64,000 nucleotides of DNA from Candidatus Omnitrophota bacterium (GTDB lineage: Bacteria > Omnitrophota > Gorgyraeia > Zapsychrales > JANLHA01), in contig JACKFI010000002.1 in assembly GCA_020632555.1 (NCBI GenBank), forward strand, positions 2,621 to 66,620, given 5' to 3'. This document shows positions 95-37,858 of the stretch, piece after piece (within the stretch, counting starts at the first letter, position 1; each line of letters starts with the position of its first letter). A program made the position numbers and the translations under genes. Under the pieces are notes generated by a model. The model was not told the DNA's origin. It saw nothing but the letters and a program-made list of their open reading frames with translations, and ran no database searches.

Positions 95-1186
95 TTATTT
101 AACTAATTGTTTGTCAAATGATTGCAAGACTTCGGATTTTTCTGATGTTTCAGCTTTTGGGCTAAGTGTCCAAAAAGTGTCCACTTTCTTACCCAAAATG
201 TCAACCGCACGCTGTTTATGGCTCGGTGCAAGATGACTATAGCGAAGCGTCATCGTAATATCTTTATGTCCCAATAATTCTCTCACCGTGTTAATGTCAA
301 CCCCAGACATGACCAACTGACTCGCAAAAGTATGTCTTAGATCGTGAAAGTGAAAACTAGTTATACCAGACTTCGCCAAAACTGTCGAGAATGATTTACG
401 GATGTCGTGCAGTGGTTCACCTGCTTCGTTACAAAATACAAAAGGACTCTCGGGGTTCTTCCTGACTCTTATGAGCGCAGTCTTGACTTGTTCATTCATG
501 GGGAGTTCCCTTTTATCGCCGTTCTTCGTGTCCAGCAAAGTAATATTATTGCGTTTGAAATCTATATCATGCCATTTGAGACTAAAAATTTCTCCTCGAC
601 GCATTCCGGTAAATAGGGCCACGACAACGATAGGACGCAACTTTTTATTGCAATGCGCCAAAAGCTTAATAATTTCTTCTTGTTCAAGAAAGCGTAATCG
701 CCCTTGAGCCTCTTTTAAAAACTGCACAGATCGCATGGGATTGACTTGTAATTTTCCCCAAGCAATTGCCTTGTTAAACATTCCCCGCAGTGTTCCCATC
801 TGACGATTGACGGTAGAAGTAGCGACGCCTTCCTTCAACCTCGCTATTTTGAAATCTTCAATGTCCTTGGCTGTAATCGTGTATAGAAATTTACCTCCTA
901 AGAATCGTTTTAAATCGGCAATGTGATAAGAGTCTGTGACCCAACTTTTCTTGTGCTGCTTAGAATGAATATTTAAATATTCTTGAGCAAAATCTTCAAA
1001 TTTAATACGCTCTTTTTTAACGACATCTAAAAACTTGCCCTCAGCAATCCCGACCTTGCGCTTACTTAAAACATTTTCTGCAAGCTTCTTGCTTGTGCCA
1101 ATGGTTTCTCGCCGACGCCTTCCATTTGGAAGTCGATAATCGATATACCAATTGCCGGTCTTTTTGTTTTGAAATACACCCTTCAT
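95..1186 (-). CDS. int: Tyrosine recombinase / phage-type integrase
   Basis: 363-aa ORF. The C-terminal catalytic region reads ...HDLRHTFASQLV...LLGHKDITMTLRYSHL (R..HxxR..Y pattern), with an N-terminal SAM-like/arm-binding region. Its stop codon is 3 nt from the tRNA 5' end. Confidence 0.92.
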   Translation of the reverse strand: MKGVFQNKKTGNWYIDYRLPNGRRRRETIGTSKKLAENVLSKRKVGIAEGKFLDVVKKERIKFEDFAQEYLNIHSKQHKKSWVTDSYHIADLKRFLGGKFLYTITAKDIEDFKIARLKEGVATSTVNRQMGTLRGMFNKAIAWGKLQVNPMRSVQFLKEAQGRLRFLEQEEIIKLLAHCNKKLRPIVVVALFTGMRRGEIFSLKWHDIDFKRNNITLLDTKNGDKRELPMNEQVKTALIRVRKNPESPFVFCNEAGEPLHDIRKSFSTVLAKSGITSFHFHDLRHTFASQLVMSGVDINTVRELLGHKDITMTLRYSHLAPSHKQRAVDILGKKVDTFWTLSPKAETSEKSEVLQSFDKQLVK

Positions 1187-29728: not shown

Positions 29729-30067
29729 TTAAATGGCGTGCTCGTTTTCTTCTCCCGTACGGATACTGACAGCTTTTTGAATGTCGGTAATAAATAGTTT
29801 ACCATCTCCTTTACGTCCAGTATGGGCTGACTTTTGAATCGTTTCAATGATTTTTAAACTCTGATCGTCATTGCAGATAATTTCGATTTTCGTTTTAGGG
29901 GTAAAGTCGATGACATAATCAGCTACATGATGTGGATAACTTTCATCTTTTTCTTTACCAAAACCCTTGGCTTCAATCACTGACATTCCATGAATATGAA
30001 TAGCCATCAAAGCGTCTACGACTTTACGCAGCATGAATGGTTGAATATAAGCTTCAATTTTTTTCAT
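29729..30067 (-). CDS. P-II (GlnB-like) signal-transduction protein
   Basis: MKKIEAYIQPFML..V.DAL...I.GMSV.EAKGFGK...IEII...D....I..I...A.TG..GDGK.F......A..IRTGEE aligns along its whole length with GlnB/GlnK. Start at 30067, with AGGAGG upstream. Confidence 0.8.
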   Translation of the reverse strand: MKKIEAYIQPFMLRKVVDALMAIHIHGMSVIEAKGFGKEKDESYPHHVADYVIDFTPKTKIEIICNDDQSLKIIETIQKSAHTGRKGDGKLFITDIQKAVSIRTGEENEHAI

Positions 30068-30077
30068 AGATCCTCCT

Positions 30078-33000
30078 TTAAAATTCGGTTTCTTCTTTTT
30101 CAAACCAACCATACAAAACGGGTAAAACTAAAAGCGTTAATAATGTTGAAGTAATTAAACCGCCGATAACGACGACCGCTAATGGCTTTTGCACCTCTGA
30201 TCCTGGGCCGGTCGCGAATAGAATTGGAACAAGCCCGAGTATAGCTACTGCAGCAGTCATCAGCACCGGTCTTAACCTGCGTTCACACCCGTTTGTAATA
30301 GCTTCATTAAGGGCAATTCCTTCTCGTCTTAATTGGTTGATGTATGAAACAAGAACGACACCATTTAAGACCGCGACACCAAAAAGAGCGATGAATCCGA
30401 CGGATGCCGGTACGCTTAAATACATTCTTGAAATAAATAATGCCACAATCCCACCGATCATAGCAAAAGGCAAATTGATAATAATAAGGGTTGCTTGCTT
30501 GATCGAATTAAAAGTGAGATACAGAAGGAAAAATATTAACGCGATTGTAATGGGAACAATAATCATTAAACGCTTCATGGCTCTTTGTTGATTCTCAAAG
30601 GCGCCACCCCATGTGATGTAATATCCGGCGGGTAACTTTAATTTTTCTTTGAGCTTCGCCTGACTTTCGGCAACAAAGCCGCCAATATCTCTTCCCCGCA
30701 CATTGCATTCAATGACAATGCGTCTTTTACTATCATCGCGGCTGATTTGGACTGGCCCTTCCACTAACTTCACCTCCGCCAATTGTGACATAGGAATTCT
30801 CGATCCGCCGGGAGAAGTGACTAAAACATTACCGATGGTTTCAATGGAGTTGCGTTTATCTTCAGGAAAACGCAGAAGAACATCGAATCTTTTTTCTCCT
30901 TCAAAGACTTGCGTGGCAGCTTTACCGCCAATTGCGGTTTCGATAATATCCTGCACATCGGCTACATTAATTCCAAAACGAGCAATTTGTCGACGATTGA
31001 TATTGACCTCGACATAAGATTGACCGGAAACTTGTTCAACCCGCAGGTCTTCCACCCCTTTGACCTTAGATACAATCTTTGCAATTTCATCAGCCTTATT
31101 CTTCAAGATGTCCATGTCATCTCCAAATAACTTAATAGCAATCTGCGATTTGACGCCGGAGATAAGTTCATCGACCCGCAAGGCAATGGGTTGGCTGATG
31201 TTAAGACCGATGCCAGGAATTTTACTCAATGATTCACGGATCTGCTCGACCAGTTCTTCTTTATTCTTAGTTGTTTTCCATTCTTTGCGCGGCTTAAGAA
31301 CAACAATGGGATCACTTAAATTGGGTCCCATCGGATCAGTCGCGATCTCAGCCGTACCTATTTTGGACACCACTTTTTCAACCTCGGGGAATTTCATTAA
31401 TTCCCTTTGGGCCAATTTTTCAATCTCGATAGATTCTTTAAGGGAAATGCTCGGCAAACGAATGATCTGTGGAGTTAAGGAACCCTCATCAAGTATGGGA
31501 ATAAACTCTGTCCCTAAGAATGGAAATAGTGCTAAGCTTCCCAAAAATAATCCCACAGAAATAACGACGACGGACGCTTTATTTTTCATGGCTTTGGCAA
31601 GCATGGGAAGATAAACTCTTTTTGCCTTGCGGAGAATAAAAACATCTTCGTCCTTGCCACCTTTTAAAAAATAAGAGCTTAAAACTGGCGATACCGTCAG
31701 AGATAGAACAAGCGAAGCAAAAAGCGCAATACTTATTGTATACGCCATCGGGCTAAACATTTTCCCTTCCATACCTTCTAATGTGAACAGCGGCAGGAAA
31801 ACAATGATGATAATAATGATGCCGAAAACAATAGGTTTGGCGACTTCATTAGCCGATTCGAGGATGATTTGGATTTTATTTCTCTCATGGCCACTTTTTT
31901 CTGACAGGTGTCGAAAAATATTTTCCACCATAACAATGGAACCATCCACCATCATCCCAATAGCAATGGCCAAACCTCCCAATGACATAAGGTTTGCTGA
32001 CAGATTCATTTGTTTCATAGCAATAAAAGTGACTAAAGCTGCTATCGGCAAATTGAGCGCAACAATAAGAGCACTTCTGGCATTTCCCAAAAACAAAAAC
32101 AAGATAATAACGACTAGAATGCCACCCTCAGTTAAAGCTTTAGTAACTGTTTCTAAACATTTCTCGACGAGCTCAGAGCGGTCATAGAATGGTTTGATTT
32201 GAATGCCATTCGGAAGAATTTTATTCTCATTAATATCACGGACTTTCTCCTTAACCTTCGCGACAATTTCTTTCCCACTTCCGCCGCGGATCATCATCGC
32301 GATCCCAGCAACACCTTCTCCTTTACCATCAACAACCAAAGCCCCTTGTCGTGTTTCCGGACCAAATTCGACCTTAGCTACGTCACGAACATAAACGGGA
32401 ACGCCTTCATTTGTTTTTAGAACAATCTCTTCGATGTCTTGGACCGATTGAATGATCCCAATGCCACGGACAATGTATTGTTCCGAGATATGCTCCAGAA
32501 CATTTCCGCCCGCATTGCCGTTGTTAGCAGCAATAGCTTCCGAAATCTCTCTAAGGTTTAGGTTGTACTTAACTAATTTCTGCGGATCAACAACGATCTG
32601 ATATTGCTTAACATACCCGCCGAATGAGTTGATATCGGCAATACCCGGAATATTTTTTAAAATAGGACGAACAATCCAATCCTGCACCGTGCGCAATTCC
32701 ATCAGGTTCTCGGCAGTTTCTTTTCTGTCCGGCCGTTCTAATGTGTATTGATAGATCTCACCTAATCCGCTGGAAATAGGCCCCAAACCTGTCTCCACCC
32801 CATCCGGTAGTTTTTCTTTGGCTTCGATCAAACGCTCCAAAACAAGTTGACGGGCAAAATAAATATCTACATTGTCTTCAAAGACAATTGTCACCATTGA
32901 AAGCCCAAATTTTGACAGCGAACGCAGCTCGACAAGGCGCGGAAGGCCTGTCATCTGAACTTCAATAGGATAGGTAACGAATTTCTCGACTTCGATAGGT

Positions 33001-34115: not shown

Positions 34116-35374
34116 TTTAAAAATTCCTCCTCACGTAAAGAACTATAAATGGCTCGTTCTAGTTCATTGATACTTTGGTCGAGATTAAATATGCCTTCGT
34201 AATACCTCACCTTGGTTTCGCTGGCGGTTTTAACTTGATCACGATAATTAATAAAGTCAATTTCGCCTTCTCGGTACTTTAAATCCGCCAGCCGGATAAG
34301 CTCATTAGCTTCCTCGACGGATTCCTTTAAATATTCCACTTGTTTTTGAGCTGTCTCAGCGTTAAGAAAAGCTTGGTAAACGTCAAACCCAATCTCGTGC
34401 TCAATGGTTTGCAATCTAGCTTCTTGTATTTCTTTTTCGGCCTTGGCTTTTTTTACTTCCCCTTGATTCAAATTCCACAAAGGCATACTCACTGAGACAA
34501 GTGCCGCGTAATCCTTGTCGTATTCAGCATCAGTTTTTTCAAATCCTAAAGAAAAGGACGGAAATCGATTTAATTGCTCTTTTAGCAAATTCTTATTTTT
34601 GGAATCAACTTTCAATTTTTCTATTTTCAAGTCAGGGCGTTGGAAAGCCAAATCCGTTAAATTCTTCAGATCAAACTTCAAGTCCTCGACTTTTAACTCT
34701 TCCTTAATATCAAGCGGATTGTCTAGACGCCGTCCAAGAAGAAGATTCAATCTGCCTTTATCAATTTTTATATCTTTCTCAACGATTAAATAATCATTCT
34801 CAGCTTTAAGCATCTCAATTTTGGCCCGCTGGAGATCATTTTTAAAACCCTGCCCAGATTGAAAACGGATCTGCACATTGCTAAAAAGTTGACGCATTGT
34901 GGCTAGATTAGCTTGAGCTAATTCCAATTCTTTTTTATCGAGGATGATTTTCATGTAGGCCGAACGGACTTGAGAATAAATACTCGACCAGACAGCCTTA
35001 AGCGCTTCTTCCCCGACTTTGACTTCATTTTTTGCAATTTTCGTTTTTAGTGCCCGAACTCCGAGAGGCTCAAAGGGCTGGACAATGGAAATCTTTTCGA
35101 GGTGCCCTTTACGTTTACCTTCCTCGTTCTTTTTAAGACCACCGATCTCAGCTTCAAGTTCGGGATTAAGGAACGTACGGGTCGTTATTAAATCTCCCTG
35201 AGCGGCTTGAATGTTTTTTCTAGTTTCGACCATTTGCGGATTATGATCGTAGGCCGAAGATAACGCTTCTTTTAAACTCAAAGCTACGCTTGTCTCGTCT
35301 GCCCCCACAAGAGGACTGAAAAATTGACCTATGACAATAAATGTAAGAATTAAAATGCGTATGTTCCTGCTCAT
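34112..35374 (-). CDS. czcC: TolC-family outer-membrane factor, CzcC-like
   Basis: 420 aa with a signal peptide and OEP repeats. It overlaps czcB by 4 nt. Confidence 0.85.
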   Translation of the reverse strand: MSRNIRILILTFIVIGQFFSPLVGADETSVALSLKEALSSAYDHNPQMVETRKNIQAAQGDLITTRTFLNPELEAEIGGLKKNEEGKRKGHLEKISIVQPFEPLGVRALKTKIAKNEVKVGEEALKAVWSSIYSQVRSAYMKIILDKKELELAQANLATMRQLFSNVQIRFQSGQGFKNDLQRAKIEMLKAENDYLIVEKDIKIDKGRLNLLLGRRLDNPLDIKEELKVEDLKFDLKNLTDLAFQRPDLKIEKLKVDSKNKNLLKEQLNRFPSFSLGFEKTDAEYDKDYAALVSVSMPLWNLNQGEVKKAKAEKEIQEARLQTIEHEIGFDVYQAFLNAETAQKQVEYLKESVEEANELIRLADLKYREGEIDFINYRDQVKTASETKVRYYEGIFNLDQSINELERAIYSSLREEEFLK

Positions 35375-35422
35375 AAATAGACTCCGAGATTACAGTTTTT
35401 AAAATAAAACAAAACCGGAATT

Positions 35423-35689
35423 TTATGAGAGGACTATTGGGGGACGCTCAGAAGTGCTGAGAGCTGGATTTTGATGAAAACTATTTTTAGAGGCAGGAAG
35501 AAAGATAAATTGTGAGGTAGCAGCGAAACTAAATGTGGTGTTTGGAAGTATCGGTGAGCAACAGGACACGTGACAAACTATCGTGCAATGATTTGTTGCA
35601 TTCAATGAATGGGAATCATCACAAAATCCACTGGCGGGAATAGCGGAAAGAAGAAAAATTGCTATTAAAATTATTTTTAGAATTTTCAT
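35423..35689 (-). CDS. Small secreted Cys-rich protein (88 aa), paralog-like to 26420..26848
   Basis: Signal peptide ending GFCDD, then HCTIVCHVSCCSP; the C-terminus reads ...RPPIVLS. It shares the order C-DD / H-C-T / FLP / PPI-x-L with the 142-aa protein. Confidence 0.5.
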   Translation of the reverse strand: MKILKIILIAIFLLSAIPASGFCDDSHSLNATNHCTIVCHVSCCSPILPNTTFSFAATSQFIFLPASKNSFHQNPALSTSERPPIVLS

Positions 35690-35849
35690 ATGCTAAGAAT
35701 ATTATCACAGAAGAGGGTTGTTGTAAAGTCTTCGTCCCTCAGGGCAAAAACCTGCTTCAGTTATTTCACAATTAATTGGAATAATTTTGGAGACATCACA
35801 CTTAATTACAAATTAATTCTCGTGTTCCCTATAATTACTTTAATTGCAA

Positions 35850-35882
35850 AAGGGATGGGTAATTCTAACTTACCCATCCCTT
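35850..35882 (-). terminator. 13-bp perfect hairpin after the mini-ORF, a possible attenuator or terminator
   Basis: AAGGGATGGGTAA-7 nt-TTACCCATCCCTT, 12 nt past the stop of 35895..35987. On the minus strand it is followed only by TTTGCAATT, a weak U-tract. Confidence 0.45.
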
Positions 35883-35894
35883 CTTAGTAATTTC

Positions 35895-35987
35895 TTAACA
35901 ACCACCCGGACAAGAACAAGCATAGGCTTGCCCAGCAATTAAGGCAACGCCTGCAATTAACAATGCTGCGAATAATAATGTTTTCAT
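35895..35987 (-). CDS. 30-codon mini-ORF encoding a signal-peptide-like segment plus CSCPGGC (below the ORF-track cutoff)
   Basis: Hand translation gives MKTLLFAALLIAGVALIAGQAYACSCPGGC. An SD (AAAGGAGGAAAAC) lies immediately upstream. The ATG is 13 nt after the stop of the SmtB/ArsR gene. Confidence 0.5.
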   Translation of the reverse strand: MKTLLFAALLIAGVALIAGQAYACSCPGGC

Positions 35988-36000
35988 GTTTTCCTCCTTT

Positions 36001-36375
36001 CTAAGTAGTAAATTTCTTGTTTTGAATACCAAGCAAACATTTGCCTTCTTCTCTTATCGACAAACGTTTTTTAAATCTCCCAAGGTCTGCTTGATAAATT
36101 TTTTCTTCAGCTTCCTGAATCACTTTACAAATTGATACACAAAAAGGTGAACAATCCGGACAAGCCGAATAATAAACCCAGCGGCCCTCTTTTCTGGATT
36201 TTATGAGTCCAGCGGCCATAAGAACATCGATATGTTTTGTAAGATTGTACTGCGGGGTTAGGATTGAATCGACGAGCTCACACCCACATGCTTCTTTTCC
36301 AGTCTTCAATAGAAGTCTTAAAATGCGGAGGCGAGTTGGTTCACCTAAGGCTTTAAATATTGCAACATTATCCAT
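36001..36375 (-). CDS. ArsR/SmtB-family metal-sensing repressor
   Basis: 124 aa. FKALGEPTRLRILRLL...ACGCELVD is the winged-HTH with an alpha-3 Cys site. There is an additional C-terminal Cys cluster, CPDCSPFCVSIC. Confidence 0.85.
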   Translation of the reverse strand: MDNVAIFKALGEPTRLRILRLLLKTGKEACGCELVDSILTPQYNLTKHIDVLMAAGLIKSRKEGRWVYYSACPDCSPFCVSICKVIQEAEEKIYQADLGRFKKRLSIREEGKCLLGIQNKKFTT

Positions 36376-36390
36376 AAATTTTCTGCCTTC

Positions 36391-36437
36391 ATACTTGCGT
36401 TATAATGCAAGTATAGCATCTTAAAATCTACTGTCAA
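36391..36437 (-). promoter_or_regulatory. Sigma70-like promoter with a perfect palindromic operator for the SmtB/ArsR operon
   Basis: The minus strand reads TTGACA (36432..36437), a 16-nt spacer, then TATACT (36410..36415). The palindrome ATACTTGC-N8-GCAAGTAT (36391..36414) overlaps the -10 and the predicted TSS. Confidence 0.6.
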
Positions 36438-37300: not shown

Positions 37301-37858
37301 CTACTTGATTGCTGAACACCAACTATCAATTTTTTCCTTTATGGCGTCACGCATGACTCTGGTTTGCTGCAATCTCTCTTCTTTACTGCCAACAAATGCT
37401 GATGGATCAGCGAAATTCCATCTGATGCGTTCGCATTCGCCGGAGAAAGCGGGACATTGTTCAGCGCTTGCTTCATCACAAACAGTAATGACAAAATCAA
37501 AAGATATGTCTATTTTGACAAGATCAAAAACGTTTTGTGTCTTTTTATTAGATATATCAATCCCTACCTCTTGCATCACTTCAACCGCCAAAGGGTTTAA
37601 TAACCCGGGTTCTAGTCCTGCACTTTGTGCATAAAAGGAATCTCCATGCAGATAATTTAACAAGGCTTCGGCTATTTGACTACGTGCTGAATTGTGGACG
37701 CACACAAATAGAACCCTCTTTTTTATTTTGCCACCAAAAAATGAATACACCTTTCTCCAAAAACCCGGCCTCTTTGCCGGTAAATGGATGAGATCTTTCG
37801 TGGCGAAGAAATTCTTCCAGAAGCTATCTAACTCATTATCCATAGCACTTCCTATCAA
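37301..37858 (-). CDS. arsC: Second LMW-PTP-type arsenate reductase, with an N-terminal extension of about 45 aa
   Basis: 185 aa. VLFVCVHNSARSQIAE and CDEASAEQCP. The N-terminal extension has no recognisable motif. Confidence 0.8.
   Translation of the reverse strand: MIGSAMDNELDSFWKNFFATKDLIHLPAKRPGFWRKVYSFFGGKIKKRVLFVCVHNSARSQIAEALLNYLHGDSFYAQSAGLEPGLLNPLAVEVMQEVGIDISNKKTQNVFDLVKIDISFDFVITVCDEASAEQCPAFSGECERIRWNFADPSAFVGSKEERLQQTRVMRDAIKEKIDSWCSAIK

Follow-up and report, generated by a model that had tools for sequence, protein, structure and literature searches.

The arsR/mini-ORF locus

The DNA analysed here, referred to as the window, is a stretch of 64,000 nucleotides (nt) from a Candidatus Omnitrophota bacterium (GenBank assembly GCA_020632555.1, contig JACKFI010000002.1, positions 2,621 to 66,620 of the forward strand). 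On its minus strand it contains an arsR gene directly followed by an open reading frame (ORF) of 30 codons, here called the mini-ORF, whose product has a hydrophobic N-terminal part and ends in CSCPGGC. The features of this locus, with positions counted from the first nucleotide of the window, are as follows:

36410..36437, minus strand: sigma-70-type promoter of the arsR/mini-ORF operon, TTGACA, 16 nt, TG-TATACT (11/12 consensus positions, extended -10)
36391..36414: perfect palindrome ATACTTGC-N8-GCAAGTAT, overlapping the -10 box, putative ArsR operator
36001..36375, minus strand: arsR, encoding an ArsR/SmtB-family metalloregulator of 124 amino acids (aa) (Pfam HTH_5 and HTH_20)
35993..36000, minus strand: Shine-Dalgarno (SD) sequence AAAGGAGG, 5 nt ahead of the mini-ORF ATG, by direct reading of the sequence
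35895..35987, minus strand: mini-ORF, 30 codons and TAA, MKTLLFAALLIAGVALIAGQAYACSCPGGC (ATG at 35987, TAA at 35897..35895)
35850..35882, minus strand: hairpin with a perfect 13-bp stem and a 7-nt loop, followed by UUUUGCAAUU, putative terminator of the arsR/mini-ORF operon

The arsR stop codon (TAG) and the mini-ORF ATG are separated by 13 nt, consisting of AAAGGAGG and then AAAAC, and the mini-ORF is read in a different frame from arsR, which rules it out as a read-through extension of ArsR. A spacer of 12 nt leads from the mini-ORF stop to the hairpin, which together with its flanks has a folding free energy (dG) of -25.5 kcal/mol (z = -6.1), with equally good folds in 0/200 shuffles. An earlier note on this DNA, made from the sequence alone, had described a mini-ORF with a near-ideal SD that begins 13 nt past the arsR stop, and a perfect 13-bp hairpin 12 nt past the mini-ORF stop; all of these features are present on the minus strand. 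The hairpin arm occurs only once in the window, so that a dispersed repeat similar to repetitive extragenic palindromes is ruled out as its identity. The U-tract at the 3' side of the hairpin (UUUUGCAAUU) is one U short of the scan rule used (at least 5 T in 8), and the hairpin was thus not called by the terminator scan. The hairpin would be the terminator of the arsR/mini-ORF operon, possibly a leaky one, and some read-through past its weak tail is possible. The palindrome, at which ArsR would bind, is present in a single copy in the 64-kb window, even with 3 mismatches allowed; a larger regulon through further operator copies was rejected, as none were found in the window.

Syntenic homologues and purifying selection

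Gene calls on nine metagenome contigs include an identical peptide; these contigs belong to the same organism and are uninformative on selection because their DNA is 99.9-100% identical over ~6 kb. The samples of origin are ERR15459717, DRR685535, SRR12358675/6, SRR30303755 and SRR18360454. Similarity searches with the peptide gave no family, and synteny was therefore used as the approach, with a survey of 160 loci encoding ArsR relatives in genomes and metagenomes, together with the contexts of 11 further ArsR homologues, in which the DNA directly 3' of each ArsR stop was scanned for versions of the mini-ORF. Six further divergent mini-ORFs were found behind orthologous arsR genes, giving seven distinct versions of 27-34 aa, whose partner ArsRs are 50-72% identical to the window ArsR. 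All of them lie on the ArsR strand, 12-26 nt past the ArsR stop, and their source genomes, where named, are Omnitrophota. Among the DNA next to ArsR relatives, the mini-ORF is always coupled to this ArsR subfamily, and the tie to an ArsR/SmtB regulator proposed in the earlier note is thus borne out by the syntenic homologues. A loose pattern of a signal plus a Cys tail had just 5 distinct spurious matches in 1.33 Mb read in six frames. The seven peptides (the related loci are given by their numbers), divided after the motif [AV][YF]A, are:

Window: MKTLLFAALLIAGVALIAGQAYA / CSCPGGC
L087: MKTSIIGLAVLAVIALIAVNVYA / YSCPPCSLCP
L167: MKTSIITMVALAVIALIAANVYA / NSCPPCSLCP
L168: MRTWIITGLLTVGIAVVAFKVYA / CPHPCLFGC
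L181: MRIKALIFGGLLLAGVALIVSQAYA / GSCPCPGPC
L008: MKRYFVGLMMVAVLVTVSAVQVFA / CCP
L009: MKKMMIMAIVFASITFVANYAFA / CPCPTPC

The closest pair, L087 and L167, differs at 3, 4 and 13 sites at codon positions 1, 2 and 3, respectively. The non-synonymous and synonymous substitution rates (dN/dS) of this pair are 0.10/0.89, a ratio of ~0.11, and the tail SCPPCSLCP has 5 synonymous and 0 non-synonymous changes; in the two alternative frames, the corresponding ratios of proportions (pN/pS) are 2.15 and 1.25, with stops. Between the window and L181, the pN/pS is 0.27. The reading frame is thus kept in homologous loci, the point on which the earlier note had made its own proposal depend, and this pattern of substitution indicates that the mini-ORF is a real gene under purifying selection.

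A spurious, non-functional ORF arising by chance downstream of arsR would be consistent with the absence of the mini-ORF from public annotation: the window ArsR has a 100% identical counterpart among the NCBI proteins, from a Candidatus Omnitrophica metagenome-assembled genome (MAG), whereas the mini-peptide is missing from the GenBank annotation of that MAG and is recorded solely in Logan gene calls, and it has no family match in Pfam or NCBIfam. However, seven syntenic, frame-preserving homologues, each with a strong SD, and a dN/dS well below 1 leave a chance ORF with next to no probability, and it is very probable that the mini-ORF is a real gene coupled to ArsR.

In L167 (319..807), a gene call named P0002 and annotated as an 'ArsR' of 162 aa reads the TGA stop of ArsR as sense and continues into the mini-ORF. 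With translation table 11, arsR and the mini-ORF are separate, and the mini-gene is hidden within the mis-called fusion; P0002 was accordingly rejected as a true fusion of ArsR and the mini-peptide, being an artefact of reading through the TGA.

The seven loci have a common blueprint, consisting of a TTGACA promoter, a -10 box with its palindrome, arsR, SD, mini-ORF and hairpin. A TTGACA -35 box with an A/T-rich -10 box is found at the equivalent place in all six related loci, and a palindrome of the form ATACTTGCA-N5/6-TGCAAGTAT overlaps the -10 box in all seven, L009 having the variant AGTTGCA...TGCAACT. The gap after the ArsR stop contains an AGGAGG-type SD in each case. A hairpin of 11-17 bp is obvious in six of the seven loci (unclear in L087), beginning from ~8 to ~33 nt past the mini-ORF stop, and the U-runs are clearest in L008, L168 and L181. 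Conservation extends over the operon layout but not to the genes downstream of it. In the simplest reading, arsR and the mini-ORF form an operon of two genes that is self-contained and autoregulated, and the regulator has the mini-ORF as its only dedicated cargo.

Anatomy of the encoded peptide

The window peptide is divided into two parts:

35919..35987, minus strand, codons 1-23: basic n-region (MK), 17-residue uncharged helix, polar Gln and A-Y-A
35898..35918, minus strand, codons 24-30: uncharged thiol tail CSCPGGC, the putative metal(loid)-binding part

Codons 1-23 would serve as a Sec-type signal peptide or as an N-in/C-out membrane anchor. The seven members all have a positively charged n-region of 2-4 residues (MK, MR, MKR, MKK or MRIK), an uncharged core of 15-17 residues and, at about positions 21-25, the invariant [AV][YF]A, which is preceded by Q, N, K or Y. 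These shared features agree with the signal-like N-terminus and A-x-A motif described earlier for the window peptide. The motif conforms to the -3/-1 (A-x-A) rule of signal peptidase I, with a predicted site after residue 23-25. The h-region of signal peptides is typically of ~10-15 residues, and the 15-17 residues found here are at the long end, bordering on a signal-anchor. A single-sequence AlphaFold2 model gives one helix (residues 3-25) and a coil tail, with a mean pLDDT of 80, and the helix sequences are 35-67% identical among members, with hydrophobic-for-hydrophobic substitutions.

The tails of the seven members have 3-10 aa with no charged residue, 1-3 Pro and an invariant C-P. Exactly three Cys are present in the tail of six members and two in that of L008, with the spacing CxC, CC or CPxPC. 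A chain of 30 residues leaves the ribosome before emerging from the exit tunnel, so that membrane targeting must be post-translational. Judged from these features, the thiol tail is likely to be exposed to the periplasm, whether cleaved or anchored.

Signal peptidase I is not the only enzyme that might process such a peptide. If the first Cys were given a diacylglycerol group by Lgt and the chain cut by signal peptidase II, the product would be a very small lipoprotein, a lipid-anchored penta- to octapeptide with two free thiols. All seven members have a Cys preceded by Ala or Ser, and Lgt genes lie near the ArsR-subfamily loci L172 and L178 and an LspA gene near L183. The classical lipobox pattern is {DERK}(6)-[LIVMFWSTAG](2)-[LIVMFYSTAGCQ]-[AGS]-C, also given as [LVI][ASTVI][GAS]-C. 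However, a lipobox in the mini-peptides was rejected, as the pattern is matched by 0/7 members, which have Q, K or Y at -4 or N at -2. Counted from the invariant [AV][YF]A, four members have their first Cys at +1 and the other three at +3, as would fit cleavage by signal peptidase I ahead of a variable tail. Because the lipobox is unmatched and the first Cys stands at +1 or +3 after an invariant motif, a signal peptidase I site is favoured over lipoprotein processing, and we consider the lipoprotein improbable.

The peptide might also remain uncleaved and act as a small inner-membrane protein that regulates a larger pump, channel or sensor, its periplasmic Cys serving as a redox or metal switch. 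Among known peptides of this kind, AcrZ binds AcrB, and MgrB acts on PhoQ and needs its periplasmic cysteines. The 17-residue core with [AV][YF]A gives ~21 residues, a membrane-spanning length with an aromatic residue at the interface, the predicted single helix covers residues 3-25, and the mini-ORF of the window adjoins czcCBA and acr3, all of which would suit a membrane regulator. On the other hand, the seven loci have no membrane-protein partner in common, conservation outside the helix is limited to a Cys/Pro tail of 3-10 residues, and the helix itself is poorly conserved, which is unusual for a specific helix-helix interface. A regulator of this type is thus unlikely, although it is the strongest of the alternatives to an exported thiol peptide.

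The ArsR partner and its likely inducer

The window ArsR matches NCBIfam HTH_metalloreg (NF033788) with 77 bits, for a cut-off of 55, and its closest PDB relative is the CadC-like Lmo1102, with the CGC (CxC) motif of the window protein aligned to the ELCVCD of Lmo1102. Three Cys residues, Cys30, Cys32 and Cys113, the last in a C-terminal GKC-LG-Q motif, are invariant in 82/82 members of the ArsR subfamily. A three-thiolate site of this type would be typical of As(III)/Sb(III) sensors and would also fit Cd or Pb. As(III) is here proposed as the likeliest inducer because of the three cysteines at this site and the presence of arsC, acr3 and aquaglyceroporin genes nearby. The published regulator ArsR2 of ND132 has a Cys layout that differs from that of the window ArsR and is mentioned as a lead only.

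In other members of the ArsR subfamily, the cargo position is occupied by an ArsP permease, a secreted HMA-domain protein, hgcAB-like genes or a cluster of a secreted protein with FtsX-ABC genes. The mini-ORF as a dedicated cargo fits this picture of varied cargo genes in the same position, and the subfamily seems to serve as a switch that can be coupled to various kinds of thiophilic-metal cargo.

Some of these loci have features of their own. In L182 (2940..4696), the subfamily arsR is followed by a CdhD-domain gene and a ferredoxin gene, resembling hgcAB, and in L183, L113 and L007/L174, there is an ArsP permease, a secreted HMA protein or a MerR/MerC neighbourhood. A recurrent gene set after the subfamily arsR was found in L171 (5377..6847), L172 (5414..9076), L174 (6473..9986), L177 (504..3513) and L180 (from 1208). 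This set encodes a secreted protein of ~305 aa with no Pfam assignment and the motif ...LQ[IV]SGG[LV]DGRY..., then proteins of ~190 aa and ~125 aa, and then FtsX/MacB and an ABC ATPase. In addition, ArsR ends with a vicinal Cys-Cys in L008 (6361..6372), L009 (6373..6381) and L177 (~505..513), with the C-termini ...KTKCC, ...NQCC and ...KKACC; two of these three loci are mini-ORF-positive, and the Cys-Cys may be an extra sensing or lipidation site.

Gene neighbourhoods

The genes found after the hairpin, by locus, are:

Window: CutF-like ORF, czcCBA
L008: MerR-type regulator, then acr3 and arsC
L168: crcB
L087: Na/H exchanger
L009: convergent crcB-arsC-MIP-arsR cluster
L181: phage-like genes

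In the window, the genes on the minus strand, read 5' to 3', are an arsM-like methyltransferase, arsD, arsA, acr3, arsC' and arsC before the arsR/mini-ORF module, and the cutF-like ORF, czcCBA and the genes for a P-II protein, a P1B-ATPase, DUF302 and YHS proteins after it. The combination of arsC with acr3 or an aquaglyceroporin gene (MIP) is found within ~3 kb of the module in the window, L008, L009 and L168.

In L181 (1..6378; GCA_041643075.1), the module is found among genes for a GpA terminase, a ParB-N6 methyltransferase and a Prim-Pol/D5 primase, and in L171 (1..3349) a subfamily arsR locus without a mini-ORF adjoins a Gp10_C gene. These phage-like surroundings hint at mobility of the module; a viral contig collection scanned with the window ArsR gave no match.

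Two further genes of the window are worth recording. The P-II (GlnB-like) gene (29729..30112, minus strand) is located between czcA and the P1B-type heavy-metal ATPase gene, an unusual place for a nitrogen-signalling family. A second arsC-like gene of the low-molecular-weight protein tyrosine phosphatase type (37301..37858, minus strand) encodes a protein of 185 aa, against 144 aa for its neighbour, with an N-terminal extension of ~45 residues, and matches the LMWPc profile in part.

A separate, probable CutF-like leader for czcCBA

The gene after the hairpin in the window is a small ORF outside the module, with the following features:

35423..35689, minus strand: CutF-like ORF of 88 aa, with a signal peptide, HCTIVCH (CxxxC) and ...ERPPIVLS
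35365..35433, minus strand: stem-loop formed between the 3' end of the CutF-like ORF and the czcC SD and ATG (dG -20.4 kcal/mol, z -4.2)

CutF-like proteins act in cis, through co-translational export, a C-terminal double proline (PP) and a stem-loop over the SD of the next, conserved gene, and the published filters for them select ORFs of <150 aa that have a signal peptide and a PP within their last 15 residues and are followed on the same strand by an OEP gene (PMC9973294). The 88-aa ORF has all of these, with the OEP gene czcC 48 nt downstream; it also matches NCBIfam CopL_fam weakly (E 0.021), and the stem-loop in the czcC spacer has equally good folds in 0/200 shuffles. It is therefore probably a translational metal sensor for czcCBA in this Omnitrophota genome, and czcCBA would thus have its own CutF-like leader, separate from the mini-ORF. 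The earlier note had described a separate promoter-like sequence for this next gene, and a site TTTACA-17-TAATAT is indeed found at 35727..35699, the sole promoter-like site upstream of the 88-aa ORF; only 9/12 positions match, however, and its -10 box ends 9 nt before the ATG, with no SD visible there.

This arrangement bears on a further reading of the mini-ORF, proposed in the earlier note, as a cis-acting leader, either CutF-like or working by attenuation, which would control the hairpin and the expression of the cutF-like ORF and czcCBA. The mini-ORF has a length of <150 aa, a predicted N-terminal signal peptide and a Cys/His motif, as in CutF-like proteins, and with its Pro and a hairpin 12 nt past the stop it superficially resembles the cutF/stem-loop/cutO arrangement (PMC9973294). 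The weak U-tract after the window hairpin would also make some read-through plausible. Against this, PP is found in just 2/7 members (L087 and L167), with a single Pro in the CSCPGGC of the window, and a stem-loop shielding the SD of a conserved same-strand downstream gene was not found at the seven loci, as the downstream gene varies and is convergent in L009. The distance from stop to hairpin is also variable, most of the hairpins have terminator-type U-runs, and that of the window is ~160 nt away from the start codon of the gene downstream, whose ribosome-binding site it leaves uncovered. The peptide itself is conserved, with synonymous changes in its Cys tail, which indicates a functional product, and a 30-residue chain would still be in the tunnel at termination, with no co-translational sensing of periplasmic metal. 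Because the layout is conserved while the gene after the hairpin varies, the mini-ORF is read as cargo of ArsR and not as a leader of czcCBA, for which the latter already has a candidate of its own with a stem-loop over the czcC ribosome-binding site. The leader reading is accordingly dropped here as highly improbable. Two look-alike neighbours are thereby told apart: a cargo mini-gene flanked by a terminator, and a translational leader of CutF type that would serve czcCBA.

Searches for relatives and comparison with known systems

Scans of the mini-peptide against Pfam and NCBIfam gave no match, including no similarity to DUF2946/CopL or to the metallothioneins SmtA/BmtA. In a search of 5.8 billion proteins, an extended ORF of 45 aa retrieved only the peptide itself, and a concatenation of four members only P0002, the read-through call of a sibling. 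A two-row profile retrieved only the window peptide among 1.84 billion proteins, and profile searches of that set thus do not detect the mini-peptide relatives. The peptide and ArsR had no match by tblastn in 72,556 plasmids, and Rfam at a permissive threshold gave two sub-threshold miRNA chance matches only. Literature searches, including the part consulted of a 2024 metallostasis review, gave no description of an equivalent small gene, so that the statement of the earlier note that no equivalent had been described still holds for these databases and searches.

The closest likeness is to the SmtB-SmtA pair, in which an ArsR/SmtB repressor, derepressed by bound metal, controls a small Cys-rich metal-sequestering output. 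SmtA is a cytosolic protein of ~56 aa with a Zn4Cys9His2 cluster and is divergently transcribed. In contrast, the mini-peptide has 27-34 aa, is encoded in a co-transcribed position 3' of the repressor and has a signal/anchor helix with a thiol tail of 3-10 residues that is predicted to face the periplasm. Its placement as a Cys-rich product under an ArsR/SmtB repressor is seen in the operon architecture alone, that is, the shared promoter/operator and the 12-26 nt gap.

MerP, MerT, MerE and MerF are also metal-induced small exported or membrane proteins with paired Cys at or near the periplasmic face, in the motifs CC (MerT, MerF), CPC (MerE) and CxxC (MerP), and CPC and CC are present in the mini-peptides of L009, L181 and L008. 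The Mer thiol proteins are MerR-regulated partners of MerA with 72-116 aa, and they have either two or three transmembrane (TM) helices or a ferredoxin-like fold, whereas the mini-peptide has no Pfam or NCBIfam similarity to them, and merA is absent from the neighbourhoods examined.

The small proteins MntS (under MntR), AcrZ (under MarA/Rob/SoxS) and MgrB (under PhoP) resemble the mini-peptide in having <50 aa and in being transcriptionally linked to a regulator that responds to stress or to a metal. Two of them, AcrZ and MgrB, are membrane peptides with a single helix, and all three act by binding a specific larger protein. The mini-peptide differs from them in having no evident conserved partner and no sequence similarity, its conserved feature being the thiol cluster. 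MntS has been proposed to derive from a signal peptide (bioRxiv 10.1101/2023.06.02.543501).

With CutF, CopL and CruR (DUF2946-like), the mini-ORF shares a signal peptide, a Cys motif, a C-terminal Pro, a downstream stem-loop and a location in a metal-resistance cluster (PMC9973294); it differs from them in being too short for co-translational export, in lacking PP in 5/7 members and in being followed by a terminator and then by variable genes. If cleaved, the products (CSCPGGC, CPCPTPC, CCP and others) would be short oligo-thiols chelating As(III), Cd or Hg, in the manner of phytochelatins. Phytochelatins are made enzymatically from glutathione and act in the cell or vacuole, unlike the mini-peptide, which would be ribosomal, Sec-/YidC-exported and extracytoplasmic.

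A short peptide with a Cys-rich C-terminal 'core' also recalls the precursors of modified or secreted products, such as a ribosomally synthesised and post-translationally modified peptide (RiPP), a chalkophore-like metallophore or a Phr-type pro-peptide. The methanobactin precursor MbnA has 30 aa, the length of the window peptide, and Phr peptides are exported through Sec before being trimmed to 5-10 residues. However, no gene for a radical-SAM enzyme, MbnB/C, a cyclodehydratase, a lanthipeptide enzyme, a peptidase-transporter or a receptor is conserved beside the mini-ORF, and the neighbour Pfam content of the window, L168, L181, L008, L087 and L009 has no conserved adjacent maturase or export protease. 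The N-terminal part is, moreover, a classical n-h-c signal sequence and not a recognition leader. The RiPP-like precursor suggested in the earlier note is thus not retained, and a precursor of this kind is very improbable.

By analogy, the mini-peptide would work most like SmtB-SmtA and the Mer thiol-relay proteins, as a member of neither family, and it is outside the CutF/DUF2946 family, the lipoproteins and the RiPP precursors.

Proposed function

Here it is proposed, from the sequence features described above, that the mini-ORF encodes an ArsR-induced peptide whose periplasmic thiol tail binds As(III) or soft metals; as a complete model, we hold this to be evenly balanced between right and wrong. 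Without inducer, an ArsR dimer on the palindrome over the -10 box would block transcription. A thiophilic metal(loid), most likely As(III), would bind to the three invariant Cys of ArsR and release it from the DNA, and the strong promoter and near-ideal SD would then give abundant peptide. The peptide would be freed from the ribosome before its hydrophobic segment is recognised and would be inserted post-translationally, N-in/C-out, so that its uncharged tail CSCPGGC would lie on the periplasmic side of the inner membrane. There, [AV][YF]A would probably let signal peptidase I free a di- or tri-thiol peptide of 3-10 residues, an uncertain step that is only somewhat favoured. The tail would chelate As(III) or soft metal ions outside the cytoplasm, which would result in less re-entry and in protection of periplasmic thiols. 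Of the functions suggested in the earlier note, the two that fit best are still a metal-buffering peptide and a one-TM peptide whose thiol cluster is exposed.

Several points weigh against this model. Cys chemistry of this kind would equally suit Hg(II), Cd(II), Pb(II) or Cu(I), the module of L008 is followed by a MerR-type regulator, and arsenic genes are lacking around L087, where a Na/H exchanger, PPK2 and a P-type ATPase are found, and around L181 with its phage-like genes. An h-region of 17 residues is long for a cleaved signal peptide and may stay in place as a membrane anchor, and in L008 cleavage would free merely the tripeptide CCP. Stoichiometric sequestration would cost one export event per metal ion, which is expensive. 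The family is also small, with only seven members, and the DNA inspected was that next to ArsR relatives.

A bolder version of the proposal, which we consider tentative and rather doubtful, is that the mini-ORF is the smallest known dedicated metal(loid)-resistance determinant: a Sec/YidC-exported, signal peptidase I-trimmed tri-thiol chelator of 3-10 residues, the sole output of an As(III)-responsive ArsR, in a module mobile among Omnitrophota and neighbouring lineages. If this were true, the trimmed CSCPGGC would be a genetically encoded extracytoplasmic 'phytochelatin' or arsenophore. If the main model given above is right, metalloregulators can own cargo genes below the standard annotation size. 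The tail peptides are short enough for direct synthesis, so that their metal binding is cheaply testable, and they are possible minimal chelating tags for As, Cd or Hg. What would be new is a metalloregulator-controlled thiol cargo in a minimal, extracytoplasmic format, rare so far and confined to uncultured lineages, through which an extracytoplasmic peptide thiol buffer would be added to efflux, reduction, methylation and cytosolic metallothioneins as defences against arsenic and soft metals.

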